IMG/VR virus record: IMGVR_UViG_3300032038_000013
Direction: 5' to 3' (one strand)
DNA length: 64,000 bases
Origin: an uncultured virus (IMG/VR IMGVR_UViG_3300032038_000013)
Taxonomy: Duplodnaviria > Heunggongvirae > Uroviricota > Caudoviricetes
Positions 3,112 through 57,933 of this stretch are shown here, piece by piece. Numbering within the stretch: position 1 is the first letter of the stretch; each line of letters opens with the position of its first letter. The notes under the pieces were generated by a model, which did no database searches, was not told the origin of the DNA, and saw only the letters and a list, made by a program, of their open reading frames with translations. The position numbers and the translations under genes are program-made.

Positions 3112-4515
3112 TTATTTCTTTCCACAACAATCTTTAAATTTCTTTCCAGATCCACATGGACAATCGTCATCAGGATTTGGATCTTTCTTTTCAATTACTT
3201 TAGTGTCTTGTTTTTCTAATATAGCTAAATCTTTTGCAACTTTATTTAATAATGCAATACGAACAGGATCGTTCTTATATTGTTCAGCTAACATTGCAAT
3301 CTTTTTCTTACGAATACTATATTGTGCTTCTTTATTTGCTTCAAGTTGTTCTTTAATTTGTTGTGCTTCTGGATCTAATTTCTTCATATCTTCGTTAATA
3401 CGTTCTTCATACATATTCTTAAGATCTACACCAGCAACCTTAATAACATTATTAAGTGCTTCAACCATGTAATCATAATTATTAGATGAAGAACCAGCGT
3501 TAATAGAATTAAATACTGTCAAATTAACTTTATCTTTACATTCAATAATTGCACAAGTTGCGTTAGATGATGTCAATAACTTACAATTGTCTACTAAATT
3601 AATTGATTCCATGTTTTCAAATACGTCGGCAATTGCTGATGAAACTTTCATTAATTGAAGTTTTTCAGCTACTGGAAGAACCTTAGAAAGATTATCACAG
3701 TATTGACGGAATGCAATATGATCTTCAAACTTTTCGTTAATATTTGTTGCTTTGAATGTTAATTCTGATTTAGATTCATTTGTTTCTTCATTAACACTTT
3801 CGTTAATTTCAAAACGGTAAACACCACGAGCACCCTTAAATTCATAGTATAATGAATCACCATCACGACCCATGTTTTCAAGTAATGCATTGATGTGATT
3901 GAATTTTTCATTTTGAACTGGAGTTGTTACAATTGTAACACCAGATTCATTCATCATAAATGTTGTACCAAGTGCTTTGAAGTAGATGTTATGTGTACCA
4001 TCTTCTTTCTCTTCATTAATACAATAGCTAATTGGATTTACTACTGTATAATTAACAGCTTGAGCTTCTGTAACTTGTGTCTTATAAACTTCTTTACAAA
4101 TTGCACGGAACTCAGGAATGTATTGAATATTCTTTAAAGAACCTGCCTTGATGTAGCTTACAACTTCAGCTTCATTCATTTCAAGAAGTTTTGAAACTTG
4201 CTGTACTCCAATCTTGTTAATGTAATTGTAAGTAGAATTGTTTGCATTGATGCTTTCGCATGCAGAAGCAAGTTTCCAAGATATGTTGTTTTCTTTGATA
4301 AAACTGTTTACAGATTCTAAAATATTGGTTAAACCTGTATCAAAGCCGTACTTTGAAGCTTCTGCTATAAATCCATTTACTAACGAACATGTTACTGGGT
4401 TTGCATAGCAATATCCTCTATATCCGTTAAGCATTTCCTTACCTGCCTCTGTAATAGCATCATTCTTACTTATAAGTTCGGCAAAGTTAAGGTTAGTCAA
4501 TAATTTTTCGCTCAT
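3112..4515 (-). CDS. Late protein with C-terminal SEC-C motif; possible head core protein
   Basis: C-terminal [15 protein letters not shown]; many I/V/M-N-E sites; likely start MSEKLL at 4515, downstream of the late motif at 4588-4600. Confidence 0.6.
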   Translation of the reverse strand: MSEKLLTNLNFAELISKNDAITEAGKEMLNGYRGYCYANPVTCSLVNGFIAEASKYGFDTGLTNILESVNSFIKENNISWKLASACESINANNSTYNYINKIGVQQVSKLLEMNEAEVVSYIKAGSLKNIQYIPEFRAICKEVYKTQVTEAQAVNYTVVNPISYCINEEKEDGTHNIYFKALGTTFMMNESGVTIVTTPVQNEKFNHINALLENMGRDGDSLYYEFKGARGVYRFEINESVNEETNESKSELTFKATNINEKFEDHIAFRQYCDNLSKVLPVAEKLQLMKVSSAIADVFENMESINLVDNCKLLTSSNATCAIIECKDKVNLTVFNSINAGSSSNNYDYMVEALNNVIKVAGVDLKNMYEERINEDMKKLDPEAQQIKEQLEANKEAQYSIRKKKIAMLAEQYKNDPVRIALLNKVAKDLAILEKQDTKVIEKKDPNPDDDCPCGSGKKFKDCCGKK

Positions 4516-12815: not shown

Positions 12816-12832
12816 TACTATATTATATTTGT
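12816..12832 (+). promoter_or_regulatory. Early promoter TACTATATTATAWTTGT (representative of 9 copies)
   Basis: Copies start at 12816, 14398, 16061, 17644, 29565, 31049, 41400, 46748 and 58749; most have TTTGAA or TTTAA upstream; 7 copies contain TAnnTTTG. Confidence 0.85.
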
Positions 12833-12855: not shown

Positions 12856-15728
12856 ATGAGTCTTCAAGACAAGATTAATAAATATTATAAGGAACATCCA
12901 TTTTTTGAAAATTATCGGGGATGGAAAATACGTCTTCATCGAAGTGAAGATAAATATTTAGGTACTCTTTGGTTTTATACTTGTGATGTTCAACCCGGTC
13001 TTGAATCTTGTCAAGCCACACATATTGAAATGGTCCGTGAATGGGTAGATAAAAAAATTGAAGAAGGTAAAATTCAAAAGGAAGATATATGAGACCTCGT
13101 ATAAATACATTCGGTAAGATAACAAGAAAAGAACTTGATAATTATCTTTTAGAGAATCAAGTATATGGATTTACTGTCAAGATAAAAGAAAATACTTTTG
13201 TCTATAGTTACAACATAATGTTCCGTAAGACAAAAGAAGCTCCTGAAATGTTATTTGTTGAAGTATCAAAAGCATCTAAACTTGTACTTGGTGCATGGAC
13301 AAACAAAGGTAAAAAATTCAATAATATAAACGATTTAAAAAATTATACTAAAAGATGATAGGTACTATTAAAAGTGTTGAACATGTTCGACAAGAAGTTA
13401 TAGATGGAATTTACAAAAAGATTAATAATGATCTCCCAATTAATCAAGAAGTTTATAAAAGATATTTTGACTTTATAGATAGTCAGATTGAACTTTGTAT
13501 TAAAAATGGGTGGATTCAGTTTTCACTGCCTGGAGATGGACCTTGTGGTAGACTCCCAGGAATGATTGAGGCTTTGCTTCTTCTTAAAGGATATGGAATT
13601 GAAAAAGGAGAAAAAGAAAATGAATATCTTATTAATATATTCAATAGAGACAATTATAAAATATGATGAAACCTCCTAAGAAACCAAAAATGAGCAAGGA
13701 ACGATATGAGTTTCTTGAAAATATAAGAACAAATGATCCTCGTCATAATGGAGCAATAATTGATAATTATCCTGATGAATGGGCAGATTTCAATATTGCA
13801 TATAAATATTATACTTATAAAGTACCATTTTCACTATCTTGTTATAAAGGACAATAATTATAAATACTATGTTAATAAGTAGAAAACCATATTGCAATAA
13901 TTGTAAAAATCGTGGCTCAGCTTGGGGTCCACATGATTATCAAAATTATCCATGCTCAAAAGGAGAAGAAATAAATAAAAAACGGCCTGGAGTACTTCAT
14001 TACGATAAATCAGAAGATATGTATTTTGTTGGAGAAAAAATGAGATGTCCGTGCAAAGAATTTTTTGATCCAATATATACAAAAGAAGAACAATTGAAAT
14101 ATAATAATCACAAATGAGTAAAACATATAAGAAAGAATTTACAAGATGCCTATTACATAACGGCAATCGTAATTATCATAATACATTACTTCGAGAATTT
14201 CATGACCGAAGTTTAATGGGTGGTATATGGCTTGTTAAAGACACTCATAATCTTTTAGATAGAAGAGATTATAAATCAGACAGAATGAAAGGCATCAGAA
14301 AAATTGCTGGCAAGAAACGTCGTTTGTATATGAAGAAATATGCAAATGAAATTATTTCAGAAGAAATTTCTAATATTATTTAATTTTTTAATTTAGGTAC
14401 TATATTATATTTGTAATTTCAAACAATAAATAATATGAATAAGAATAGTCAGTATGTAAAGAACTCAGTCGAGAATTTGCGAGCTTATGCAAAGCTGCAT
14501 GGACTGAAGCTTGTGTTCCGCAACACTACAACTAATGCGGGAGATTTCTGTTTCTTCATTTATAAGGCTGGTATTTGTGGCCGCTATCTTGTTGGTTATG
14601 ACGGCAGTTGGAATGCTTCTCCAAATGAGAACATTAGTTTTGACCGCTGCTGGGATTCCGCTCATAAGTTTATTTCAAATTATGATAAGTAAGTATGAGT
14701 AAACCAAAGATAATCCGTAATTGGAAAGCTGTTAAGAGTGACCTTGATTTTAATCTTGCATACAATTTGTATAAGTCACACAAGGTAGATGGAGTAGAAT
14801 ATCCTATAATTGGATTACGACTTGGTGTTTCAAAGTTTTTCCAATCAGGTCTTCATAACATTGATGAGGCAATGTTTTCTCCTCGTGAGGCAACATCAAA
14901 TAAGTGGGAGATCATTATTCCTGATGATGCAGCTGAGGAAAAGACAAATAAGCTTCGTCAGATGCTGAAGGATAAGAATTTTACTGGGCTGCGTTATGAT
15001 AAGATTGACAATATGTCAATTGATGAAATGTGGAATGCTATTATCGAACAGATGAGTCGACTTGATAAGGATAATAAGTATCGTATTGCAAAGAATATTA
15101 TTGAAACTGGCCTTTATAAGAAGCTATGAGAAAAATTTTGTATTTGATTATTGGGTTGTGCTTGTTTGTAAGTTGTTCTGAAGAGTCACAACAAAGGAAT
15201 GAAGCTCTAAAAAATGAACGAATTAAACTTGAGCAAACTATTGATAGCTTGAAAAAACAGCAGTTTATTGTTACTGCTTTCAATGATTCTTTGTTCTTAC
15301 TTAATAAGAATATTATGGAGAATATGGAATCTCGAGAACGCAACGATAGATTAATGAAAGAACGTAAGCAGCTTGAAGTAGAGGTAAATGGAAATAGAAA
15401 TATTAATGAACAACTTAAACGTCAGCATAAGGCATTAGTTGAACAAATTAATAAAGATAAGTTTGCATTAGCTGTATCAAATACTATTTATATTGTTAAA
15501 ATCAAGATACATCAGACTACATATACGTTGGATCTTGAGGAACATATTAAGAATAAAATTAATGATATAACATTTGAGATCCCAGTTGATAAAGCATATT
15601 ATGATAATTGTTCAATTGGTCAGAAAGTATCAGACCCAGGATTGAAACTCGGATCACTATTGGTGAATGGTGATTTTTCAAAACTGAAAGTTAAGATTAT
15701 TGGAAAACGCACTGTGAAGAGAAATTAA
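12856..15728 (+). CDS. Cluster of ~9 small hypothetical early genes (12856, 13089, 13355, 13663, 13869, 14114, 14435, 14695, 15126 lipoprotein-like coiled coil)
   Basis: Tightly packed or overlapping + strand ORFs after early promoters. Confidence 0.7.
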
Positions 15729-16024
15729 ATGAATGGATTATCTTGAAGCGCTTTAAGGATCTCTTCACATTGTTTACATTCATTCTTAAAGTTTGATACT
15801 TCAGATACACTTAAATCAAACCATTCATTTTTTACATTAGATGTTGCATGTCTACCGTGCAACATCTTTTCTATTTTTGTTGGGTACATTGTTTCATAAT
15901 AAGAATGAATCCATATTTCATTAGGATTGCCTGTTTGCAATTCTGCTACTCTTTTTTCAATTTTGCCTCTTGTCATTCCTATTTTGAATTTCTCGCCGTC
16001 ACATAATAAATAAACAAATCCCAT
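15725..16024 (-). CDS. GIY-YIG / T5orf172 family nuclease-domain protein
   Basis: GFVYLL..FKIGMT..KRVAELQTGNP..EKMLH..EWF. Confidence 0.85.
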   Translation of the reverse strand: MGFVYLLCDGEKFKIGMTRGKIEKRVAELQTGNPNEIWIHSYYETMYPTKIEKMLHGRHATSNVKNEWFDLSVSEVSNFKNECKQCEEILKALQDNPFI

Positions 16025-23180: not shown

Positions 23181-23906
23181 TTATTTTCCTTCAAAATACC
23201 AACGTGCTTCAGCTTGACGTCTTTTGATTAAGCCCGGATATTTCTTTCCTTGAACATCAGATAAATGAGACCAAGTATTTCTTATTGTAGGATTATTTGG
23301 ATTAGCTGCAATTATCTTACATATTTGTTTTTGTAAGAAACCAAAACCAAAATTATAACAAGCACTTGCAATAGCATCTTTTTGATTTTGATTTAATGTA
23401 ACTTTATTTGCTTTAGCCCAGTTATCTATTTTTGTTGATGCTTGTTTTGCATGTTGTAAAAATAATTGTTCAAGTTCCTTTTGTGTCCATACTTTTTTAA
23501 TTGTGTCCATAAACTTTTGTGTTGTTGGATGATACAATAAACCATAACCATAAGTCTTATGACCACCTGCGTCATGTAAATCATATCCATTCAAATCTTT
23601 AGCAGTCATTGTATAACCAAATTTTTTACCTGTTTCATATTGACAAATAAAATTAATCATACCTGCACTTATACCAACATTATTACCTGAACTTGGAGCT
23701 TGTTGTGATGTTTGTGTTTGGTTTTCTAATATAATAGCCCATGATTTGTCACCAATAATACCATCAGGAGTTAAACCTTTTGATTTTTGCCATTCTTTTA
23801 CTTTTAATAATGTTTTTGGACCAAAATCACCATCAGGATTAATTCCTAAATATTTTTGCAATACTTTTACATCATCTCCTTTAGAGCCTAATTTAATTGT
23901 ATTCAT
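23181..23906 (-). CDS. Endolysin: peptidoglycan-binding domain plus GH24-like lysozyme
   Basis: IKLGSKGDDVKVLQ..DGDFGPKT..DGIIG; TYGYG, NQNQKDAIASACYNFG, GLIKRRQAE. Confidence 0.9.
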   Translation of the reverse strand: MNTIKLGSKGDDVKVLQKYLGINPDGDFGPKTLLKVKEWQKSKGLTPDGIIGDKSWAIILENQTQTSQQAPSSGNNVGISAGMINFICQYETGKKFGYTMTAKDLNGYDLHDAGGHKTYGYGLLYHPTTQKFMDTIKKVWTQKELEQLFLQHAKQASTKIDNWAKANKVTLNQNQKDAIASACYNFGFGFLQKQICKIIAANPNNPTIRNTWSHLSDVQGKKYPGLIKRRQAEARWYFEGK

Positions 23907-25585
23907 TATTTCTTATCTTTATTTTTCTTTTCTGCTTCCTCTGCAGCTTTCTTATCTGCTTCTTCTTTGAAACTATAAGCAAGATCATCTTCAAGAATAT
24001 GTTTCTTTGCTGGATTAATTTGATAAGCTAAACGAGACATAACATCTCTGTTAATCAATACTTTTTGTTTCTTATTACGATTATCTACTAATGCAAATTC
24101 AACATCAAGTAATTTACGAGAACCTACTTGTATGCAAGGTATAATAACTGTTGTACGAGGTTCAGTTACTTGTCCAACAATTGCACGAGATTCACCAGCT
24201 TTCTTAAATTGATATTTCTTACCCTCTATAGTTGCAATAACTAAGTTTCCTTTATAATCAAGACTGTCACATCCTATTGTTGATGCTTTTGCTCCATTAC
24301 CTGTATCAAACTTTGCTTCAAATTCAAATTCATCATCATTATCCATTGTGAATTTAACATTTTCAAGATATCCTATAGCTTTTGGTGCAAGTACTAATTC
24401 ATTAATATCGTTAATTTCATCTAATAATATTTCCATAAAGTTATCATCTATAACTTCAGAAATACCATCTGTACCTGGAGATGCATTATATTCAAGAACA
24501 ACATTATCTCCAATTTCAGGATTTGAACCTTTTACAAGTGGCATAATATCAACTGCACACCATGGCATACCAGATATCTTTGCAACTTTAAGTGCTATTT
24601 CTTCTTGTTCTGGAGTCAATTCTACTTTTTCTGCAGTTGCACCTAATGATACATTTGAACGGAAATCACCACCAATTTTCTTACGTTTCATTTGTGCAAG
24701 TATTTTTTGATGAGTACGCATTGTTAATACATGAACACGAATATCACCACCATCTGCTTCTTCTTTCTTTTGTACTAATAATTCACGTTCTTCATCAACA
24801 GCAAATACCATTTGAAGCATTGAAAGAATTGTTTTACCTGATTGCATGGTAACACCTGTACCACCATGTCCATCAAGAATCTTTACAACATATTCTTTCT
24901 TTTTATCTTCATCTTCATTTTTACCAAGGTCAGGATATATTACTTTTAATTTCTTCTTAAGAGATTCTTCACCTTTTAATATATCATTCTTTGATATTAA
25001 TGTAAATCTTGGTTGTGGAATTTCATATCTTTCCATTAATACAGCTGACTGATATTTGTTTGATGCTTTCTTTGCAGATTGTATTGGGTTAAGAACAAAG
25101 AATCCCCAATCTTGAAGTTCTTTTATTAATTCCATGCATTCTTCTGAATCTTGAGCACCAAGACGAGTAATTACAATTGTATCAATATTAGATTGTTCAT
25201 CAACCTTATATTTGTTTTCATTATCGTGCCATTCTATTTTATCATCAGTTGCTTTATAATCAACTTCTTCAGCAACGAATGGAAAGATTTCAACGCCTTT
25301 GCCTTTTACTGCTTGTTCAAGATTTTTTAATGTCTTGTTTGTTTTTGAATCTCTATCATTTGTAAATACAAGAATGTTCTTAAAGAAATATTTATCCTTT
25401 TTATCATCCTTTGCTTCATGAATTACAATATCATCATCTTTTGCAAATTCATCATGTGTTGACATTTCTTCAATTCGTTTTTGCTCAGCAATTTGTTTTT
25501 CTTCACGAATTTGAGCAGCCTTTTCAAGTACTTTTGCAACTGTTAAAGGATCTTGATAATTAATGTATTCTGTAGAATCTTTCAT
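23906..25585 (-). CDS. RimK-family ATP-grasp ligase fused to a retropepsin-like (RimB-type) protease
   Basis: VVKILDGHGGTGV, DIRVHV, DFRSNVSLG, AVDI, VLEYNASPG; C-terminal AKFDTGN and VLINR. Confidence 0.85.
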   Translation of the reverse strand: MKDSTEYINYQDPLTVAKVLEKAAQIREEKQIAEQKRIEEMSTHDEFAKDDDIVIHEAKDDKKDKYFFKNILVFTNDRDSKTNKTLKNLEQAVKGKGVEIFPFVAEEVDYKATDDKIEWHDNENKYKVDEQSNIDTIVITRLGAQDSEECMELIKELQDWGFFVLNPIQSAKKASNKYQSAVLMERYEIPQPRFTLISKNDILKGEESLKKKLKVIYPDLGKNEDEDKKKEYVVKILDGHGGTGVTMQSGKTILSMLQMVFAVDEERELLVQKKEEADGGDIRVHVLTMRTHQKILAQMKRKKIGGDFRSNVSLGATAEKVELTPEQEEIALKVAKISGMPWCAVDIMPLVKGSNPEIGDNVVLEYNASPGTDGISEVIDDNFMEILLDEINDINELVLAPKAIGYLENVKFTMDNDDEFEFEAKFDTGNGAKASTIGCDSLDYKGNLVIATIEGKKYQFKKAGESRAIVGQVTEPRTTVIIPCIQVGSRKLLDVEFALVDNRNKKQKVLINRDVMSRLAYQINPAKKHILEDDLAYSFKEEADKKAAEEAEKKNKDKK

Positions 25586-26386: not shown

Positions 26387-27139
26387 ATGACAGAATATAA
26401 ATTAATGAATACTAAAGACGTTGCTAATTTATTCGTCAATAAGTATATTAATAATGAATTTAGAACAATAGGTAATGCTGTTCAACAATCAAAGACAATT
26501 GAATTACAGAACATTCAGTTTGAGGTTGATAAGCCATGGATTATAAGACAACCTAATAAAGAATATTTTGAAAGAGAATTAGAATGGTATCAATCAGAAT
26601 CATTAAATGTAAATGATATTCCTGAAGGTGCACCTGTAATGTGGAAAGCTTGTGCTGATTCATTAGGTTATATTAATTCAAACTATGGATGGATGATTTG
26701 GTCAAAAGATAACTGTGAACAATATAAGCATTGTATGGAAAAACTTATTGAAGATCCACATACTCGTGAAGCTTGTATGATATATAATCGTCCATCAATG
26801 CAAACTGAATATAATAAAAATGGAATGCATGATTTCTGTTGTACTTATGCAGTTCAATGTTTTTTAAATGAAGATGAAGGTGGAAGATATCATTTGAAGT
26901 ATATTGTATATATGAGAAGTAATGATGCTGTATTTGGATTTGATAATGATGCATTATGGCATATACATGTACAAGAGAAATTAGCAAGAGATTTATTTGG
27001 TAAGATTATTCCTGCCGTAGGAATAGCTGCTCCAATTATTTGTGATCCTATTATATGGAATGCAGGTTCATTGCATATTTATGAAAGACATTTTAAGCAT
27101 CTTGAAGAATTAATGCAACAAAATTCAGAATCAAAATGA
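26387..27139 (+). CDS. dCMP hydroxymethylase (T4 gp42-like, thymidylate synthase fold)
   Basis: RELEWY, INSNYGW, IYNRPSMQ, DFCCT, MRSNDAVFGFDND and WNAGSLHIY match recalled T4 gp42 motifs, including the dCMP-specifying Asp. Confidence 0.88.
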   Translation: MTEYKLMNTKDVANLFVNKYINNEFRTIGNAVQQSKTIELQNIQFEVDKPWIIRQPNKEYFERELEWYQSESLNVNDIPEGAPVMWKACADSLGYINSNYGWMIWSKDNCEQYKHCMEKLIEDPHTREACMIYNRPSMQTEYNKNGMHDFCCTYAVQCFLNEDEGGRYHLKYIVYMRSNDAVFGFDNDALWHIHVQEKLARDLFGKIIPAVGIAAPIICDPIIWNAGSLHIYERHFKHLEELMQQNSESK

Positions 27140-27924
27140 AAACATTACATATTATAATGCCTATGGCTGGGGAAGGTAGCCGTTTCAAAGAAGCAGGTTA
27201 TACAGTCCCTAAGCCATTAATTAATTTCGAAGGAATAGAATTATATAGACGATCATTATCAAGTCTTAATATTAAAGATTACAATGTTGATGATTGGCTT
27301 AAGATAAAATATACATTTATCGTTAGAAAAGAATTTGTTGATGATTATAATATTGATAAAGAAATTAAACAATATTATCCTGAAGCAAATATCATAACAG
27401 TTGAAAAAACAACAAGAGGTGCATTAGAAACTATTATGCTTGCTGAAAAATATATGGAGGATGATGAATGCATAATATCTATGGATTGTGATATTCAATT
27501 TTCTTCTGTAGGATATATTGAAAAATTATTTCATAAACTACGTTTAGCTTCTTGTAGAATACCAATGGTGTTAACATTTTATTCAAATAATCCTATTTAT
27601 AGTTTTGTAAAGGTTATTGGAAACGTTGGTATGTTTGTTGCTGAAAAAACTCCAATATCAAATTATGCTATGGGTGGTTGTTATTATCTTGGTGAAGCAA
27701 AATATTTAAAACAAGCAGCACAACAATATATATCAGATTTTGAATCTGGAAAAATAAAAATTAAAGAGTTATATTTATCTGAAGTAATAAACTATATTAT
27801 TGATATACTTGATACTTGTATAGATGTATATGATATGAATTTACATTATGATCATTATTGGTCATTTGGAACTCCATACGATTTAGAGAATTATAATTAC
27901 GATAGAAATATATGGGACGCATAA
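27136..27924 (+). CDS. Sugar-phosphate nucleotidyltransferase
   Basis: IIMPMAGEGSRF..GYTVPKPLI, TRGALET, DCD, SFGTP. Confidence 0.85.
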   Translation: MKTLHIIMPMAGEGSRFKEAGYTVPKPLINFEGIELYRRSLSSLNIKDYNVDDWLKIKYTFIVRKEFVDDYNIDKEIKQYYPEANIITVEKTTRGALETIMLAEKYMEDDECIISMDCDIQFSSVGYIEKLFHKLRLASCRIPMVLTFYSNNPIYSFVKVIGNVGMFVAEKTPISNYAMGGCYYLGEAKYLKQAAQQYISDFESGKIKIKELYLSEVINYIIDILDTCIDVYDMNLHYDHYWSFGTPYDLENYNYDRNIWDA

Positions 27925-28478
27925 AAGCAATTATCACAGATTTTGATGGTACACTTGTTGATACATTAATGGCTAATTATCTTGCATATCGTGAAGCATT
28001 TGAAAGTTTTGATTATCAATTATCTCTTGATGAATATAAACAATGTTATGGGTTACGATTTGATGCATTTTGTGATAAGATGAATATTAAACAAGATGAT
28101 AGAAAACCAATAAAAGAATTAAAGAAAAAAATATATCCTGCTTATTTTAGTCATATAAGACTTAATGAATCATTATTAAGATTTATCAAATCTGCTAAAC
28201 AAATGGGTATGAGAACTTGTATTGCATCAACAGCAACAAGAGAAAATCTTTATGGTGTACTTAGATATTTTCTTATTGAATCTTATTTTGATATTGTTAT
28301 AACAGGAGAGAATGTTTCAAAAGGAAAACCAGATCCTGAAGTATATCTTAAAGCAATGAATCTATTAGAATGTGAACCTGAAGAAGCAATTGTATTTGAA
28401 GACTCTGAAGTTGGTTGTGAAGCTGCTGAAAATGCGGATTTAAATTATATAAAAGTAACTGAATTTAATTATGAGTAA
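27912..28478 (+). CDS. HAD-family phosphatase/phosphomutase
   Basis: DFDGTLVD, KGKPDPEVY, VFEDS. Confidence 0.9.
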   Translation: MGRIKAIITDFDGTLVDTLMANYLAYREAFESFDYQLSLDEYKQCYGLRFDAFCDKMNIKQDDRKPIKELKKKIYPAYFSHIRLNESLLRFIKSAKQMGMRTCIASTATRENLYGVLRYFLIESYFDIVITGENVSKGKPDPEVYLKAMNLLECEPEEAIVFEDSEVGCEAAENADLNYIKVTEFNYE

Positions 28479-29508
28479 AATTTTGATAACTGGAGCTGCA
28501 GGATTTATTGGATCACAGCTTGCATATAAATTTATAAAAGAAGGACATAAGTTAATATTAGTTGATAATATGTCTTATGGACATGAAGATAATCTTAAGT
28601 TTGATGATGTTGACTTAAATGAAGTATTATTCAAATATGATATTAGAGATAGAGAAAAAATGGAAGAAATTTTTAATATCTTTGATGATCATTTTGATTA
28701 TGTATATAATATAGCTGGTATTGCTCCACTTCCTGATTGTCAGTCAAATCCATGTGAAGCTGTTGATGTTAATGTTAATGGATTTGTTAATATACTTGAA
28801 CTTAGTAGAATATATGGAGTTAAAACTGTTATTCAAGCATCAACAAATGCAATGTATGAAAACTGTACAGCATTTCCAACATTTGAATATGACTTCCCAT
28901 TACCTACATTGATATATCCAAATACAAAATATTGTGCTGAACGATTTGCACAATCATATTGTGATACTTATGGAATGAATGTATGTTGTGTTCGATTTGC
29001 AAATGTATATGGACCACATGTTGATTGTCTTCGTAAACAACCACCATTTGTAGGTTATCTTATTCGTGAACTTTATTATCAAAGAGTTCCAACATTTCAT
29101 TCAGATGGTAAACAAGCAAGAGATTATATATATGTTGATGACTTAACTGATTTACTTGAAAAGGTTCAAGATTGTAAAGGATTTGATGCAGTTAATTGTT
29201 CTTCAAATAAATCATATTCAGTTCGTCAGATTTATGATGTTGCACAAAATATTATGAAGATTTGTATTCCTGCAAATTATGTTGATTCTTCAAATTATTG
29301 GAAAAAATATCCGCAACTTTATGAAGGTGCATATTCAATTAAACCTGAAGTATTGGATCATGAAGTAAACAAATTTTCATTATGTGACAATACACATGGT
29401 CTTGCAAGATATAATTGGCAGCCTAAAGTTGATATTGAAGAAGGAATGAGAAATATGATTGAATATACAGTTAAGTTATTTCAAAAATTAGATGAAGGTA
29501 GCAAATAA
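28471..29508 (+). CDS. NAD-dependent nucleotide-sugar epimerase/dehydratase
   Basis: ITGAAGFIGS, YPNTK (YxxxK), RFANVYGP, RDYIYVDD. Confidence 0.9.
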   Translation: MSKILITGAAGFIGSQLAYKFIKEGHKLILVDNMSYGHEDNLKFDDVDLNEVLFKYDIRDREKMEEIFNIFDDHFDYVYNIAGIAPLPDCQSNPCEAVDVNVNGFVNILELSRIYGVKTVIQASTNAMYENCTAFPTFEYDFPLPTLIYPNTKYCAERFAQSYCDTYGMNVCCVRFANVYGPHVDCLRKQPPFVGYLIRELYYQRVPTFHSDGKQARDYIYVDDLTDLLEKVQDCKGFDAVNCSSNKSYSVRQIYDVAQNIMKICIPANYVDSSNYWKKYPQLYEGAYSIKPEVLDHEVNKFSLCDNTHGLARYNWQPKVDIEEGMRNMIEYTVKLFQKLDEGSK

Positions 29509-29607: not shown

Positions 29608-31012
29608 ATGGTAAACATCAAATCTGTTCCTGAGTACATTTTCGAGACAGGCCGCGGTTATCAATATGTTATTGCAATGAGGATGAAAGATGGTTCCCTT
29701 CTTTATCAGCGAGTTTGTAAAACGAAAAGGGAAGCCAACAAGAGATTGGCCATTAATCAGGGATGGCGTGGAAATATTTTTGAAATTTATTCACTTAATG
29801 ATATCGCACGTTAATACCGTTCAAATAAATAATATATGATGTATTATAATTCAATTGCTCAGGAACTTAGAATCAATGATTCTGTTGTTTATGATGAGTT
29901 AAATGTTGAGACTGAAAGTGGTTTATATACACCATCTGTAAAGATTAAAAGAAATTACAGAATTGGAAAAATCATTGGTTTTAAGGAACTCAAAAAATAT
30001 ACTAAGGCTATTGTTGAGTTCAACTATTATAATGATAAGGAGACAATTGAAGTTAATGTCAAACATTTAATTAAGCTTTAATATGAAAAGATCTGGAAAG
30101 TCAATTGTAATGCATGCACCAGGAATGTGGACATCTGATTTTAAAGAACATAATTCAAAAGGTAAGAAGCATGCTTGGACAAAGTCAACGGCAAAAGTTG
30201 CTACTCGTAGTTTCCGTCATAATAAAAGTTGGAAGAATGACATTTAATTAAATAAATATGCTGAAATATACTTCTAAAGACACTGAAAAGATGATTGATG
30301 TTTTTGCATCAATTGCTGACAAAAAGGATAATCCTGAAGAGTTGTATAAAGAGATGCTCAAGATTGTTGATTACCCAGTTCCTGTTCTTCAAGAATTTTT
30401 GAACTGTATGACTGCTCTTAACGATAAGAATCAGGAGTTCCTAAAGGAAAACTATATGGGAGTTATTGGTTATATTACATTACGTTTGAATCTTATAAAT
30501 ATTTAATTATGAAAGTTGGAGATATTATTGTTTATGCGTATCATTACAGCGCATGTATTCCTGAGTTTGCTCGTGTTATTAAATGTACTTCTAAGACTGT
30601 TTGGCTTGAACATGTTGGTAAGAAATGGTTATCGAATGATGGCTATGGACAGAATGGGTTGAGAGTTCCTGATTTTGATGCACCAACTACTCCATTCAAG
30701 AAATCACATCGTATTCATGTACGAAAGGATGGGTCTGAATATATTAAGATTGGAAGTTATTGTATTGGAGAACTATGGACTGGTAATCCTGCAAATGAAT
30801 ATACAGATTAAGTTATGAAGGGAATTTATTATATTGAAAATCATATTGATGAGATCCACTCGAGTATAAGTGGTTACTTTGCAACAGAAGATGAAGCTCG
30901 TGAAGGACTTAAGTTTTGTGCTGATTGGTTTCGTCCTAATGGTACAGGCCGAATTTATTTCAAGGAGTTTGGTCTACATGGTAAGACAACACTAATTTAT
31001 GAATCTCGATAA
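29608..31012 (+). CDS. Cluster of 6 small hypothetical early genes (including an unlisted basic ORF at 30083-30248)
   Basis: Packed ORFs after the early promoter at 29565. Confidence 0.7.
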
Positions 31013-31126
31013 TTTTTTCTAAATAATATTTGAATTTTATAAATTAAGTACTATATTATATTTGTAATTGATTAACAAACAAATAAAGATGAAGAATAAG
31101 AACAAACCTCCGCCCGTGTCCTTTTA

Positions 31127-31479
31127 AGGATTTTATATATTATTCCAAGCAAATAAATAAACCAACTTGAGATGTAGTAACGTCTATTGCTGAGAGGTTT
31201 TCCAATATGGTTTTTGACTCAGACACAATAAAGTCCACGACTATGGCAAGAGATCGACCGATTTAAGAAGATAAATATTTTTACTTCGATTAGACAATTA
31301 AATGAACTTATATAAAAATCCCCTAAGAAGTTGAATAGGGATTATCGTTCAGAATTGAGCGTTACAAAAACTTCATTAAACACCGGGTTCAAAACAATAA
31401 TACCAGACAGTTGCATGCGGAAATGGTGACCAAGTTATTTGAGAACCCAAATCAAAAAAGGCAGCCAATTGGCTGCCTT
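31127..31479 (+). ncRNA. Candidate structured non-coding RNA, family unrecognised
   Basis: No ORF of 60 aa or more; several nested stems; early promoter upstream and terminator downstream. Confidence 0.55.
31458..31479. terminator. Bidirectional terminator
   Basis: AAGGCAGCC-aatt-GGCTGCCTT. Confidence 0.8.
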
Positions 31480-31505
31480 AATTAATATAATATTAAATAT
31501 GTTTG

Positions 31506-33425
31506 TTAAACAATTGGGTCACCTTCATAAGGAACAGCTTTATAAGCTTCAACCACTGGAGTTACAGGATTCAATGCAGAACCTAATAATGTGTTAACAT
31601 ATAAATTATGAGCATTGCCAGTATCTAATCTGATTGCTGCACCAATTGAGCCTATAATTGCAACACCTTTAAGTTCTGTATCAGTTGTACCGAACATACC
31701 TTTAGAGTGTTTACCATTTCTTCCATAAACATCAGCAAAACCAGTTAACTTCATTTCAGGATCTTCTTCAGTTGCAACTCCACGGCCTACTGTATGATTA
31801 ACAACATTTCCTTTTGCAACAAATATACCATCAAATGTTGAATATTCAGGATCTGTAGTATCTGTTATATAACTATCTATAACTGATGAATTGATAACTG
31901 CATCTGGACCAATTACAATTGCATTACCTTTAACACCGCGTTGACCACAATTTGTTACAACGAATGCACCTTTAGAATCAATGAATCTTGTTTCGCCACC
32001 ATCAACACCATCACCAATACCTGATGTTACGTAAAGAACTGAACCACCTTTTAATTCTATAGTTACATTGTTTTCTGACTTAATTGCGTCATGATCATAT
32101 GAGCCTGTTAAATCATTTTCAGTTGTATCTTTATTGATTATTGCATTAATTGTATCTTTAACAGCAGTAATCTTAACTCTACCAACATCAGGAAGATTTG
32201 CAATAGAAGGAGCATGACTATCAGTAACAATTACAGCACCATTAAGATAAATATCTAATTTATGATCATATCCTCCATTAAGTTTACCTTTCTTTGAGAA
32301 TGTAGGATTATCACCAACAGTAATTGCATCCGTAGCACGAACAATAGGACGTGTAATTTTTCCTGTTACTTCAACTACATTATATTCTTTATTAATTAAA
32401 TATGCTTGAGGAGCATCAAATAATACTTCTACAGGATCATCCCAACACCATGTAAGATATCCAGCAGGAGTAGCATTTTTAACAACATTTTCATTTTCAT
32501 CAGCATTATAGAACCAACCTGAATTAACAGTTGTACCTATTGTAAAATTAATTTGTACTCCATTAGTTTTATTTTCATAATCTTCTTTTGTTGGATATGC
32601 AGTAACAGTACCTTCATCATACATTTCTTCAATTGGATGCATTTTTGTTCCTGAAACACCAGCAACTGCATAATAACCATCATTCTTAGAATCGAAGTTG
32701 TCTTCAGCTACATTAACAAAAGTAAATTCTCCACCAAGAACAATGATCTTACCTTTATCAGTTGTTCCAAATGCATCTTTTGCAGCTTGTACATAGAATA
32801 CACCATCAAGAATATTAACATTCTTACCATGAACACCGTCATGAACAGTATCAATATAAATATGAGGACCTGCAACATTCATTGTTTCACCTCTTAAACC
32901 ATGACCAATGTTATTGTAAACTGCAAGATAACCAACACCTTGAACTGTTAAGTCTTTCCAAGAATCTATTGATGCATAAGTTTCATCGCCTTCGACAGTT
33001 GTTTCTTTATTACATACAACAAAGTTTTGAGAATCTTTTGTAAGAGTTACATATAAACCTTGATAACCTTTATTATTTGATTCTGGACAATTATATAAAA
33101 TACCATAAGCATCATCTGAAATAATTGTTGCATTATTCAATATAATAGTTGTCCATGCTTTTGGCTTAACTGATGTTGCATCAATAACAATTTGACCTTC
33201 ATGAACACCGACTAATTCATATGTACCACCAGCGGCTAATGTAATAATTTTATCAGTATATCTAACACCATTAATAGTGAAGATATTTGCATTAACGCCT
33301 TTATTGAAATAAAGTTGTCGTATTGCTCTAATAAATGATACGTTAGGTGTTATATAATCTTCAGAAATTTTGAAGGCATTATATAAAGCCTCACTATCAA
33401 AAGCAGTAAGATATTTCTTTATCAT
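31506..33425 (-). CDS. Carbohydrate-binding beta-helix protein (DUF4353/Cthe_2159-like)
   Basis: ITLAAGGTYELVG..GQIVID, IILNNATI, HDGVHG, DAIKS and GDGVD repeats. Confidence 0.7.
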   Translation of the reverse strand: MIKKYLTAFDSEALYNAFKISEDYITPNVSFIRAIRQLYFNKGVNANIFTINGVRYTDKIITLAAGGTYELVGVHEGQIVIDATSVKPKAWTTIILNNATIISDDAYGILYNCPESNNKGYQGLYVTLTKDSQNFVVCNKETTVEGDETYASIDSWKDLTVQGVGYLAVYNNIGHGLRGETMNVAGPHIYIDTVHDGVHGKNVNILDGVFYVQAAKDAFGTTDKGKIIVLGGEFTFVNVAEDNFDSKNDGYYAVAGVSGTKMHPIEEMYDEGTVTAYPTKEDYENKTNGVQINFTIGTTVNSGWFYNADENENVVKNATPAGYLTWCWDDPVEVLFDAPQAYLINKEYNVVEVTGKITRPIVRATDAITVGDNPTFSKKGKLNGGYDHKLDIYLNGAVIVTDSHAPSIANLPDVGRVKITAVKDTINAIINKDTTENDLTGSYDHDAIKSENNVTIELKGGSVLYVTSGIGDGVDGGETRFIDSKGAFVVTNCGQRGVKGNAIVIGPDAVINSSVIDSYITDTTDPEYSTFDGIFVAKGNVVNHTVGRGVATEEDPEMKLTGFADVYGRNGKHSKGMFGTTDTELKGVAIIGSIGAAIRLDTGNAHNLYVNTLLGSALNPVTPVVEAYKAVPYEGDPIV

Positions 33426-33549
33426 ATACTTATTTTTATGAATATATTTATAATTTAATGCTATTTATATAAAAATAATACTTATTAACTATTAGTATTT
33501 TTTTAAGAATTTGACTATATTAAAATTAATAAATATACGAATACTTTAT

Positions 33550-34410
33550 ATGAATATTGACATAAAAGGTCATTCAGGATGTAACATTGATATTATTGAA
33601 GACGGTGATAATTTGTTTGTAAAGAAGTCTACTATAGATCCTAAATATTTAAATAGATTAGGTCTTCAAGCAAAGAAACAAAAGGATGATGAATGTTTTA
33701 CAGATTCTATAATTAATCCACATATTCATAAAGTTGAAAGAACTGAAAATGAATGTTATATATTAATGGATTATATATATGCAAATAATTTCATTGATTA
33801 TTTTGAAAAAGCATCACCACAAGATATAAATCATTTTATAGACAACTTTATTAAATATATTCATAATGAAATTGATAAATGTGAAATAAAGAAAATTTCT
33901 AAAAATGTATTTATTGATAAATTTAATTCTGTTGTAAAGAATTGTGAAAAGAATGAATTATTAAAAGGAAATATGAGAGTTAAATCAATTCTTAAAGATT
34001 GTGAAAATGTATTTACAAATCTTCCTGAAGAGATTGAACTCCCAATAGGTATTTGTCATGGTGATTTGACATTTTCAAATATTCTTTTTGCATCTAATAA
34101 ATTCTATTTCATTGATTATCTTGATTCATTTATTGAAACTCCAATACAAGATATTGTTAAATTAAGACAAGATACAAAATATTTCTGGAGTACTATGATG
34201 TATAAAAAGAAATATGATGTTGTTCGACTTAATATAATATTCAATTATATAGACAATAAGATATCTGAACATTTTGAAAATTTTGAATATTATTTTAGAA
34301 ATTATGACAGACTTCAATTAATGAATATATTAAGAATACTTCCTTATGTTAAAGAAGAGAAAGTTCGTGATTTTGTATTAAATATATTGACAGCATTGCC
34401 TAAGTACTAA
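33550..34410 (+). CDS. APH/choline-kinase-like phosphotransferase (putative sugar kinase)
   Basis: GHSGC loop, VKK, CHGDLTFSNIL, FIDY; ATG at 33550. Confidence 0.8.
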   Translation: MNIDIKGHSGCNIDIIEDGDNLFVKKSTIDPKYLNRLGLQAKKQKDDECFTDSIINPHIHKVERTENECYILMDYIYANNFIDYFEKASPQDINHFIDNFIKYIHNEIDKCEIKKISKNVFIDKFNSVVKNCEKNELLKGNMRVKSILKDCENVFTNLPEEIELPIGICHGDLTFSNILFASNKFYFIDYLDSFIETPIQDIVKLRQDTKYFWSTMMYKKKYDVVRLNIIFNYIDNKISEHFENFEYYFRNYDRLQLMNILRILPYVKEEKVRDFVLNILTALPKY

Positions 34411-34412
34411 AT

Positions 34413-35123
34413 ATGAAAGAAGAATATACATTAATTGTACCAATGGTTAGTGTTAAAAGTAAAAACACTGTACCACTTGAATTTCAATACGATAATAAAA
34501 CAGGTCAGATAAATTGTATTAAAGCATTAGAAGGAATTGATTTGTCAATGTTTACAAAGATATATTTTATAATGCTTTATGAACATGAACTTAAATATCA
34601 TATTGCAGAGAAAATTACTGTTGCAAGAAAGTTTAATAAAAAGTTATTAGATACTGAAGTTGTATTTAAGTTTTTAGATAATCCAACAAGTTCACAAGCA
34701 GAAACAATTTACAACACAATTGTAGAATATAATATTGAAGGTCCAATATTTATTAAAGATGCTGACAATACTTGTACTTGTGAGGGTCAAATAAAAGGCA
34801 ATACTGTTTTGGTTTATCCATTGGAAAATACTCCAATTGTAGATCCTCAGCATAAATCATATGTAAGTGTAGATGACCAAAATTTTGTTGTAAACATTAT
34901 TGAAAAAAGAGTTGTAAGCAATTTGTTTAATTGTGGTGGTTATAGTTTTACTGATGCATCATTATTTAAAACAGCTTATGAATCATTATTAGGATATGAA
35001 GATATTGCAAATCATATGTATATATCACATATTATATATTGGCTTATATTGAATAAGAAAATTAAATTTCGCCCAGTTGAAGCTGTTTATTATGAAGATT
35101 TTGAATTAAATACAAAAGATTAA
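34413..35123 (+). CDS. Second, divergent nucleotidyltransferase-fold protein
   Basis: TSSQAET, IFIKDADN, KSYV, IIEKRVVS, GGYSF, MYISHII; lacks the GxGSR loop. Confidence 0.65.
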   Translation: MKEEYTLIVPMVSVKSKNTVPLEFQYDNKTGQINCIKALEGIDLSMFTKIYFIMLYEHELKYHIAEKITVARKFNKKLLDTEVVFKFLDNPTSSQAETIYNTIVEYNIEGPIFIKDADNTCTCEGQIKGNTVLVYPLENTPIVDPQHKSYVSVDDQNFVVNIIEKRVVSNLFNCGGYSFTDASLFKTAYESLLGYEDIANHMYISHIIYWLILNKKIKFRPVEAVYYEDFELNTKD

Positions 35124-35125
35124 AA

Positions 35126-36034
35126 ATGTTAGATAAAGTAGCAATTTGTGTTCCAACATATAATAATAGATATAGTGAAGTATTAAATTATATTAACAAG
35201 TTAACATCATTATGTGATGTATTTATTGTATTTTCAAATAATGATGACAAGTTGAAAGAATATGATAGTTATGATTGGAATGAAAAGATAAATAAAGTAT
35301 ATTGTGATGCAAAGACAATTGGTGAAAAGAGAAAATTCTTAGTGAATTATCTTTATGATAAAGGTTATCAATATATAATACAAATGGATGATGATGTTCG
35401 AACATTTGCATCTGAAATAAATGAATCAACAAAAAGAACAACATCAGAATCATATGCTAAACATAAGATTACTCTTGAAACTTTAATAACAAGATTAATT
35501 GATAAAATGATTAAATATGATGCTGCATTTATTTCTCCATCATTTCCATTTAGTTTAGGATTTTCAAAACCAGGAGCAATTGCAATTAACAAGTCTTTGA
35601 ATTTTGGACAGTTTACAGTAGTTGATGCATTAAAGTTAAAAGCAAATAATATTGAATATGATACAAGAGATAATATTCATGAAGATATTGATTTGGTAAT
35701 ACAAATGCTTCAACATGGAATGACATGTGTAACATTAAAAGATACTGCATTTGAGGTTACAGGTTCATCTTCATTATTTGAAAATTCAACTGTATGCCAA
35801 GCAAGTAAATTAGATTATGCAAGAGTTAATTTGTATTTAAAATATAGAGATGGTATATCATTAAGAATAGGTAAACGTGGAGAATTACGTTTGACTTGTA
35901 AACTTGATAAATATTGGAATACTTTTGAAATTCCAGTTAAAAATGATCTATATCATAATAAAATGTATGAACTTTGTCAAAAGTACGATATTGAAGGAAT
36001 TAAAGAATTAATTAGAAATAAGAATAAAAAGTAG
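35126..36034 (+). CDS. GT-A glycosyltransferase resembling the T2/T6 glucosyl-hmC second-sugar transferase
   Basis: ICVPTY.NR, IGEKR, IQMDDD, EDIDLVIQMLQHG. Confidence 0.65.
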   Translation: MLDKVAICVPTYNNRYSEVLNYINKLTSLCDVFIVFSNNDDKLKEYDSYDWNEKINKVYCDAKTIGEKRKFLVNYLYDKGYQYIIQMDDDVRTFASEINESTKRTTSESYAKHKITLETLITRLIDKMIKYDAAFISPSFPFSLGFSKPGAIAINKSLNFGQFTVVDALKLKANNIEYDTRDNIHEDIDLVIQMLQHGMTCVTLKDTAFEVTGSSSLFENSTVCQASKLDYARVNLYLKYRDGISLRIGKRGELRLTCKLDKYWNTFEIPVKNDLYHNKMYELCQKYDIEGIKELIRNKNKK

Positions 36035-57591: not shown

Positions 57592-57933
57592 ATGGAAGAA
57601 GTAAAAGAATATGTAAGTAAAGATGTTGAACAAGAAGCACTTGAAGTTCCAACAGTACAAGTAATGCCTGAGACAGGTACAATTATGGATGCAGTACAAA
57701 TGTCTGAAGAGAATAATAAACAAAGAGAAGCAATGGAAGCTGCAATATCAAATGACCAAATGAAGAGATTTAAAGCAATGGCAAAAGCATGGCAAGAAGC
57801 TCATACACAAAAGGTTAGAAAATTTGATAAGGTAGGTCGTAATGATCCATGTCCATGTGGATCTGGTAAAAAGTTCAAGAATTGTTGTATGAACAAAAAG
57901 AATTGGAATGAATTAGTTCCTGTAAAAAAATAA
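57592..57933 (+). CDS. SEC-C motif protein
   Basis: [20 protein letters not shown]. Confidence 0.9.

Follow-up and report, generated by a model that had tools for sequence, protein, structure and literature searches.

Three consecutive prolines represent the classical pause site that depends on EF-P, with mgtP of Salmonella being an example of a polyproline leader; the peptide TnaC ends in D-H-R-P followed directly by the stop codon, and the effect of the bar minigene of phage lambda is known to stem from its translation and not from a protein product. Background on EF-P and polyproline pausing is given in a further source (PMC11611912), and for minigenes both the sequestration of tRNA and early AGA codons are dealt with in another one (PMC2490762). 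Arrest peptides of the RAPP/RAGP type, i.e., SecM, ApdA, ApdP and ApcA, are the subject of related papers (PMC10951233, PMC7897499), and for RAPP-like motifs a third paper states that the Arg is irreplaceable and that arrest persists in part when Ser or Asp takes the place of the Ala (PMC12992588). The present work concerns a stretch of 64,000 nucleotides (nt), hereafter called the window, which derives from an uncultured virus of the Caudoviricetes (IMG/VR record IMGVR_UViG_3300032038_000013), and within it the gene-free spacer 31013-31505, which is flanked by the stop codon of a + strand open reading frame (ORF) of 65 residues (31012) and by that of a convergent - strand ORF of 639 residues (31506). 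A previous examination of the letters alone (the sequence-only reading) had claimed this region to be a stand-alone transcription unit with no real gene and hence a candidate structured noncoding RNA. Here it is suggested to be an independently transcribed and translated minigene RNA of a rumen phage and to act by proline-dependent pausing of ribosomes, a reading to which an even chance is given.

Two tiny ORFs, termed uORF1 and uORF2, are found on the + strand of the spacer, and the codons of their homologues show both putative minigenes to be under peptide-level selection in dozens of related phage contigs. The claim that the unit holds no real gene thus did not survive, as both families vary synonymously (TCN/AGY for Ser, CGN/AGA for Arg) with the peptide fixed, and it is this fixation of the motif despite synonymous variation which argues for a translated minigene RNA with structured modules and not for a pure noncoding RNA. 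For the uORF1 family 22 rows were obtained from relatives, which, due to two nested ATGs, correspond to 20 distinct ORFs; their PPP codons occur in 12 combinations, whereby all four Pro codons are used, and two variants extend 14 residues beyond PPP. For the uORF2 family, 30 combinations of the motif codons were identified over 86 distinct contexts, encoding RDRP (9), RASP (14), RDSP (3) and RDST (4) and making use of TCC, TCA, TCG, TCT, AGC and AGT for Ser, of CGA, CGT, AGA and AGG for Arg and of all four codons for Pro. The stop codon follows 0-2 codons past the motif in 77 of these 86 contexts as compared to 27% expected from the local base composition. Arg followed by Ala or Asp is present in 86/86 contexts, where the Arg was required by both the search pattern and the regular expression and is hence not independent. 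Residues past the Pro vary freely, as do most residues before the Arg, and the conserved part of both families ends at the Pro codon (or at Thr). The 20-mer used for searching includes ATGGNAAGAG, meaning that one M-x-R start of an R-x-x-P ORF per locus results from ascertainment; free of this effect are codons 4-6 of uORF2, the stop codons, the extra copies and all of the [KR]PPP ORFs. On the forward strand of 48 loci (118 kb, some of them being one contig present in two collections) 22 [KR]PPP and 107 R-[AD]-[SR]-[PT] mini-ORFs were counted, and on the reverse strand 0 of either kind, with the order of the arrays being fixed in that the [KR]PPP ORF comes first and is followed by 1-5 R-x-x-P ORFs. 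Among the 1,784 ATG-started ORFs of at most 16 codons in the window, only uORF1 and uORF2 carry the motifs.

The start of uORF2 is covered by a near-invariant block which ends with ATG GCA AGA, and downstream of it the sequence varies like coding sequence; the search pattern fixed 19 of the 22 bases of this block, so that independent evidence comes from its flanks only. The near-invariance extends to synonymous positions, and together with the covariation of modules U and X and with the cassette-like swapping of the structured portion of module U among near-identical phages, the fold being kept (see below), it would suit a pure structured noncoding RNA whose tiny ORFs are untranslated and conserved for RNA-level reasons. 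Such an RNA is nevertheless considered quite unlikely, as codons 4-6 of uORF2 as well as the PPP codons vary synonymously, including switches of Ser between TCN and AGY, ORF length changes by whole codons (MKAR, MMAR), the stop codons reside directly behind the motif and no complementary partner for the ORF segments was seen by eye in the inspected flanks. Selection at the peptide level and the several copies per transcript would likewise be in line with the peptides themselves being the product, the tandem minigenes then yielding many copies of peptides of six to twelve residues that would be directed towards a host or phage target. However, these peptides would be very short and without export signal, and the freedom of the residues after the Pro, and mostly also before the Arg, fits a motif read on the ribosome side better, which makes a peptide product highly improbable.

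Comparison of the uORF2 family with the RAPP/RAGP arrest peptides reveals common features, namely Arg, a small residue (Ala or Asp), one further residue and Pro near the end of a small ORF, and in both cases conservation stops at the Pro, which would occupy the A site. The phage ORFs differ in their third residue, which is Arg or Ser instead of the Pro or Gly of the arrest cores, in their length of 6-9 codons without a tunnel-interacting N-terminal part, and in their setting, as they are phage-encoded, arranged in tandem and not located upstream of Sec or YidC genes. Where the RAPP core reads R-A/G-P-P or R-A-G-P, the window has R-D-R-P and its relatives have R-A-S-P, R-D-S-P or R-D-S-T, and instead of being located upstream of a regulated gene the unit of the window ends at a terminator facing the convergent gene. 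Because of the different third residue, the uORF2 family is not regarded as a member of the RAPP/RAGP group. With polyproline leaders, uORF1 has in common its three Pro after Lys or Arg (CCT CCG CCC at 31107-31115, hence three consecutive ones), the ORF size of 6-20 codons and the position at the 5' end of the transcript, but no regulated gene is found downstream in the window. The "toxic minigenes" of the lambda bar type are phage-borne ORFs of few codons as well (7 and 12 codons here); bar, however, consists of two codons and has no conserved peptide, whereas the ORFs described here keep their peptide motif, differ in the last sense codon and are each preceded by a structured RNA module. A resemblance to TnaC and Pro-stop termination is seen in phage ORF ends of the form ...R-P-stop or ...R-P-x-stop and in the early stop codons counted above, but the phage ORFs are without the 24-residue sensor peptide, a known ligand or the rut-site arrangement of TnaC. 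Full-text literature searches led to work on arrest peptides, on pausing at polyproline, on minigenes and on RNA triplexes, but to no description of such phage minigene arrays. Each of the parts belongs to a known kind; their combination and the family as such are new to Rfam and to the searched literature.

Between the two ORFs resides a structured RNA, module U, for whose description a covariance model (R1) was built from 31 copies, which was required because indels hid helix Hb from RNAalifold when a plain MAFFT alignment was used. In the window R1 gives a single match (31136-31268, 124.5 bits, E 2.6e-24), and elsewhere it identifies 33 distinct strong copies. Across helices Ha, Hb and Hc, 85.1% of the cells are paired in the 33 distinct relatives versus 68.6% in shuffled controls, and 12 of the 16 pairs change on both sides (98 cells), a value reached by 0 of 500 shuffles. 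The underlying alignment was fitted to the covariance model, which favours structure; the signal is argued to be real as controls with slid partners pair in only 29-36% of cells and the helix sequences are varied. Within Hb, 7/8 pairs change on both sides, giving variants such as CUGAG/CUCAG, GACUGAAU/AUUCAGUC, GUGGA/UCCAC and GGCUC/GAGCC, and the two U-runs enclosed by this helix show little or no variation. At one conserved pair, 20 of 33 sequences have U.G; read from the opposite strand, this pair would turn into a C-A mismatch, which identifies the + strand as that of the RNA, in agreement with what had been proposed from the G-U pairs before. The stems drawn for this part by the sequence-only reading required revision: neither GTAGTA/TATTGC nor GACT/AGTC belongs to the conserved pairings, covariation being found in AGATG/CGTCT and CTGAG/CTCAG instead, and of AAACC/GGTTT (here P1) it stands that the pairing is possible, with covariation being confined to a single position (among 32 sequences, 21 have C-G, 8 have U-A and 3 have a G-G mismatch). 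The P1 pseudoknot is hence plausible but weakly supported. As an idea, the layout of module U may be likened to a U-rich triplex clamp. In common with H-type pseudoknots and U-rich triplexes (ENE-like, SAM-II/preQ1-II) it would have a lower helix with a short hairpin above it and two facing U-runs, the first GGUUU being able to pair with an A-rich tract that lies upstream and has CC at its end. It differs in that the pseudoknot is backed by one covarying pair, in that Rfam gave no match and in that the triple helix is hypothetical; furthermore, ENE elements clamp a 3' A-tract, whereas the A-tract of module U is located 5'. The near-invariant loop of Ha reads as two tandem stop codons, UAG UAA; one relative has UAA UAA, and UAG CAA, UAG UAU and UAG AAA occur in others. 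A kissing contact between this loop and the start of uORF2, both of which are invariant, is possible.

Table 1. Coordinates of the features assigned to the spacer, given as positions of the window.
Feature	Position	Strand	Remarks
Promoter-like element TTGAAT-N-TACTATATTATA	31030..31060	+	Repeated phage promoter family; predicted from motif
uORF1, 12 codons, MKNKNKPPPVSF-stop	31089..31127	+	Family M-x(2-4)-[NE][KR]-P-P-P-x(0-3)-stop in most members
Structured RNA module U	31159..31222	+	Hairpin Ha, helix Hb, hairpin Hc, possible pseudoknot P1
Possible pseudoknot P1	AAACC 31159-31163 with GGUUU 31196-31200	+	One covarying position
Hairpin Ha	31170-31174/31181-31185	+	Loop UAGUAA (31175-31180)
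Helix Hb	31190-31194/31218-31222	+	Encloses two U-runs flanking Hc
Small hairpin Hc	31202-31204/31208-31210	+	Inside Hb
Block AAGTCCACGACTATGGCAAGAG over uORF2 start	31231..31252	+	Invariant in 31 aligned sequences except for one C/T position
uORF2, 7 codons, MARDRPI-stop	31243..31266	+	Family M-(x)-x-R-[AD]-[SR]-[PT]-x(0-2)-stop
Possible hairpin GAAG...CTTC	31267..31287	+	Sequence only; relatives holding it are identical there
Module W hairpin AATCCCCTA/TAGGGATT	31317-31325/31336-31343	+	Part of 31317..31361
Module W hairpin CGTTCA/TGAGCG	31346-31351/31356-31361	+	Part of 31317..31361
Module X, long 3' hairpin, three stems	31385..31448	+	GCATGC palindrome in apical part
Terminator hairpin shared with convergent 639-residue gene	31458..31479	.	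9 pairs, 6 G-C

More than 40 homologous copies of the unit were found in rumen and gut phage contigs, and, completely or in part, the stretch occurs in contigs from 20 public runs belonging to 16 studies, the majority of them of bovine or sheep gut. A homologue search with the neighbouring 100-residue protein yielded one weak, uninformative locus. A 236-kb viral contig encodes a homologue of the 639-residue protein with 84% identity; beside this homologue the unit is absent, its place being occupied by an HAD-like gene, and window positions 31130-31283 match another intergenic place of the same contig (77% identity, E 6e-21). With the 20-base core shared by the copies 2 viral contigs were matched, and a looser gapped pattern gave a third one of 376 kb, which is syntenic with the window; the loose pattern occurs at 47 places in viral contigs, of which nhmmer left 3 distinct real contigs. 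In metagenome contigs the core was found in 52 stretches corresponding to 46 distinct sequences, most of them clearly homologous and few of them chance matches, and a scan of a genome collection gave 4 exact 20-mer matches, all of which were judged to be chance matches in unrelated DNA, and no clue to the host.

The relatives, designated by L numbers where they have to be told apart, recombine the same parts in varying number, i.e., module U with an ORF, one or two W hairpins, module X and the terminator hairpin. A second pseudoknot-like module, absent from the window, is present in L021 (1620-1710), L073, L079, L101 and L107; its interleaved helices are GGGU/ACCC and GGCGA/UCGCC in some relatives and GAGC/GCUC and GCGGA/UCCGC in L021 and the 376-kb contig. 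It is followed by a conserved ORF of 8 codons, MKIRDST-x-stop, the Arg of which is encoded by CGA or AGA. In a second group of contigs (L064 and L089) 3-5 minigenes stand in tandem upstream of a gene encoding a 113-residue protein of unknown family, and within this group a minigene and the 113-residue gene behind the array share an identical translation start region, TTAACCCCAAAACTTACAAT-ATG. The arrays of L064 (1250-1900), L089 and L090 follow sequences such as TACCTTTGCA, which we take to resemble the Bacteroidota promoter consensus TAnnTTTG. Over 2.7 kb, relative L104 shares 94% identity with the window; its flanks are near-identical, but its central stretch of about 115 nt is only about half identical. 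The divergence (window 31136-31226 versus 1408-1495 in L104) comprises the end of uORF1 and the structured module U, with all helices being re-made from other bases, and metatranscriptome contigs show the same replacement, whereby 87-88 letters lie between 31135 and 31227. The structured part of module U hence looks like an exchangeable cassette, or like the outcome of very fast, fold-preserving change. For a decayed protein gene or neutral spacer, the lack of a long ORF (the longest in 31013-31505 has 32 codons) and the lack of a match when 30500-32000 was compared by blastn with 50,697 phage records might be put forward; more than 40 homologous copies with covarying helices, conserved tiny ORFs and modules in varied orders render this explanation extremely improbable.

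Towards the 3' end, the stems GGGTTC/GAACCC, AATAA/TTATT and TACCA/TGGTG, which had been pointed out from the letters before, were confirmed as module X: in a plain MAFFT alignment of 7 distinct sequences 16/16 pairs are 100% paired, and four pairs, spread over all three stems, change on both sides. The covariation score was reached by 0 of 500 shuffles, with slid controls pairing at 18-46%. As modules U and X both show covariation above that of shuffles, the proposal of a structured RNA stands; thermodynamic evidence for it was mixed, however, since a z-score of -3.17 was obtained for the whole unit with its terminator and values of -0.33 and -1.03 for the two modules alone. These unremarkable module scores are the reason why the support for structure is taken from covariation and not from stability. 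The palindrome in the apex of module X (31413-31418) reads TGCATGCA in relatives, and in the 376-kb relative an insertion of about 146 nt is located at this position; by virtue of its sequence the palindrome could allow for loop-to-loop pairing of two RNAs. An ORF within module X (MVTKLFENP...) was dismissed, since L083 and L092 have lost the start codon. For module W, copies in L073 (two) and L075 have hairpins at both places, as seen by eye, with differing stem lengths.

That the unit stands alone between promoter and terminator is supported by the flanking stop codons, the repeated promoter motif and the hairpin. The promoter claimed by the sequence-only reading is real as a motif: TACTATATTATA occurs in 10 exact copies in the window, all on the + strand, as compared to 2.46 expected, with 0 of 100 shuffles reaching 10, and the full 31-mer is present in 3 copies at up to 3 mismatches versus 0 expected. 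The copies are located at 12816, 14398, 16061, 17644, 29565, 31049, 41400, 46748, 51909 and 58749 and mostly precede runs of small ORFs. Each resides 30-46 nt upstream of an ATG, and the distance of 40 nt to the ATG of uORF1 resembles that of the ordinary-gene ATGs behind the other nine copies. A scan for sigma-70-like sites matched the element at 9/12 positions, and generic sites of this kind are not enriched in the region (26 found versus 35.2 expected), for which reason the specific repeated motif is considered as the promoter evidence. In the 236-kb relative, the promoter region matches dozens of places, many of them intergenic. The repeated TACTATATTATA elements are therefore a family of predicted phage promoters, of which the motif itself is real. 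As to the terminator, the hairpin of 9 pairs proposed earlier is present; its T-run, however, is found on the - strand, and behind the stem the + strand reads TTAATTAAT, which is why the hairpin is assigned to the 639-residue gene, which matches Pfam family Cthe_2159, in the first place. In relatives L021, L073, L101 and L107 T-runs on the + strand follow module X, with different hairpins at the same place.

The arrangement of the unit bears on a further explanation, according to which the RNA is a cis-acting leader or attenuator, whereby pausing on the tiny ORFs would set read-through of the terminator or expression of a neighbouring gene, namely antisense read-through into the convergent 639-residue gene in the window and a downstream gene in other phages. 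Short ORFs with stalling motifs are a classical attenuator design, as exemplified by tnaC and by the polyproline leader of Salmonella mgtCBR; in L064 and L089 the array of 3-5 ORFs lies directly upstream of the 113-residue gene on the same strand without a terminator in between, and six relatives place the unit convergent with the same 639-residue gene family. Against this, the unit ends in a terminator of its own in the window, L021, L079, L101 and L107, behind which a new promoter follows in L107, a convergent gene in L079 and L101, and an AT-rich spacer of about 220 nt before the next + strand gene in L021; moreover, the neighbours differ between relatives, and no alternative terminator/antiterminator pairing was found. 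Attenuation is thus regarded as unlikely. As no gene is located downstream in the unit of the window, the payoff is most likely to be found at the level of RNA or translation machinery, a role which is favoured here, with control of a protein gene ranking second, since in some relatives the array is indeed followed by a gene.

The region was found in contigs of 4 metatranscriptome runs from 4 studies, and in three of these (X1, X16 and X17) its word depth amounts to 80.9 versus 22.1, 34 versus 5.7 and 81.6 versus about 16-23 for the upstream gene. Such contigs carry neither RNA ends nor strand or level, and the libraries can contain DNA, so that presence and depth are consistent with transcription but no proof of it. 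A contig of 427 nt from an RNA library spans 31054-31483; as its two ends fall on the promoter repeat and on the palindrome of the terminator, where contigs break, it was not counted as a transcript map.

Comparison with Rfam, proposed in the sequence-only reading as a check, identified no family: with Rfam 15 at gathering thresholds neither the window nor 10 related loci gave a match, and a permissive scan (E up to 10) returned only weak matches on the - strand riding on the terminator hairpin, the best of which, MicX, scored 23.2 bits versus a threshold of 75. ARAGORN found 0 tRNA or tmRNA genes in the window, in agreement with the earlier remark that neither was recognised in the unit. A group I intron core, a tmRNA-like unit, a ToxI-like antitoxin array, a CRISPR-repeat mimic and a riboswitch were considered and dropped, as their defining features are lacking.

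On this basis a sequence of events may be suggested, in which ribosomes would start on uORF1 and uORF2 and then pause or stall there, in the manner of EF-P-dependent polyproline pausing in the case of PPP, and of RAPP/RAGP-type arrest motifs or Pro-stop termination in the case of R-x-x-P. The purpose of the tiny ORFs would be the act of translation itself. With a ribosome halted on the Pro codon, the start codon located 12 nt upstream would be covered as well, thereby allowing for one ribosome per minigene, and paused ribosomes together with the upstream pseudoknots might jointly shape, protect or switch the downstream RNA modules. Several points weigh against proline-dependent pausing. The third residue of the motif (R or S) deviates from that of known arrest cores (P or G), a nascent chain of 5-6 residues is too short to reach the tunnel constriction, and one type of family member ends in Thr (RDST) instead of Pro. 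The 22-nt block is near-invariant including third positions of codons 2-3, which speaks for an RNA-level constraint unexplained by stalling, albeit this invariance is partly an effect of how the relatives were found, just as one R-x-x-P start per locus is owed to the 20-mer. Among the scanned ORFs of at least 90 residues (including 57 ORFs) no translation-factor gene was found nearby, the z-scores of the two modules alone are not significant, and the contigs from RNA libraries may hold DNA and break at repeats. The ends of transcription, the translation and the stalling of the unit are all inferred.

Beyond proline-dependent pausing as such, a bolder and rather doubtful suggestion is that of a new class of phage RNA which would park host ribosomes on arrays of arrest ORFs, many of these ORFs residing behind a pseudoknot of their own. 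The RNA might then work in trans, trapping or sensing either ribosomes or the factors by which proline stalls and termination are resolved (EF-P, release factors, rescue systems), or, alternatively, the parked ribosomes might be built-in shields giving a very stable RNA; the exchangeable, fold-preserving cassette of module U would in that case mark an interface in conflict with the host.

The window is AT-rich, phage-like DNA (G+C about 28%), the genes of which include lysozyme and NrdD/NrdG as well as a gene cluster for a thymidylate-synthase-like protein, HAD hydrolase, NAD-dependent epimerase, kinase-like protein (APH/EcKL) and TET-associated glycosyltransferase. The members of this gene set locate to 26387-29508 and 33511-36034 and look like a pathway of DNA base hypermodification. 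RimK is known to modify ribosomal protein S6, and a 559-residue protein with a RimK-like ATP-grasp domain (23906-25585, - strand) is of possible interest near a putatively translation-linked RNA. An ORF of 99 residues with a T5orf172/MUG113 domain (15725-16024, - strand) runs counter to the + strand genes that surround it, apparently in the manner of a small mobile nuclease-like gene, and two unrelated ORFs (3112-4515, - strand, and 57592-57933, + strand) end in or carry a SEC-C zinc-binding motif.

Taken for the phages concerned, the sole coding content of the transcript consists of ORFs of 6-20 codons with stall-prone proline motifs, which are interleaved with covarying folds, and tiny ORFs and structured RNAs in such spacers are usually ignored by phage annotation. 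If stalling holds true, this would be the first case found of a phage making use of arrays of arrest-type minigenes, and the R-x-x-P arrest motif would widen to Ser or Arg at its third place and to nascent chains of five residues. The unit provides a compact system of about 400 nt and two ORFs for very short peptides and upstream pseudoknots acting on ribosomes, and even if its function should turn out to be an ordinary one, e.g., RNA stabilisation, the family adds RNA motifs that are absent from Rfam.

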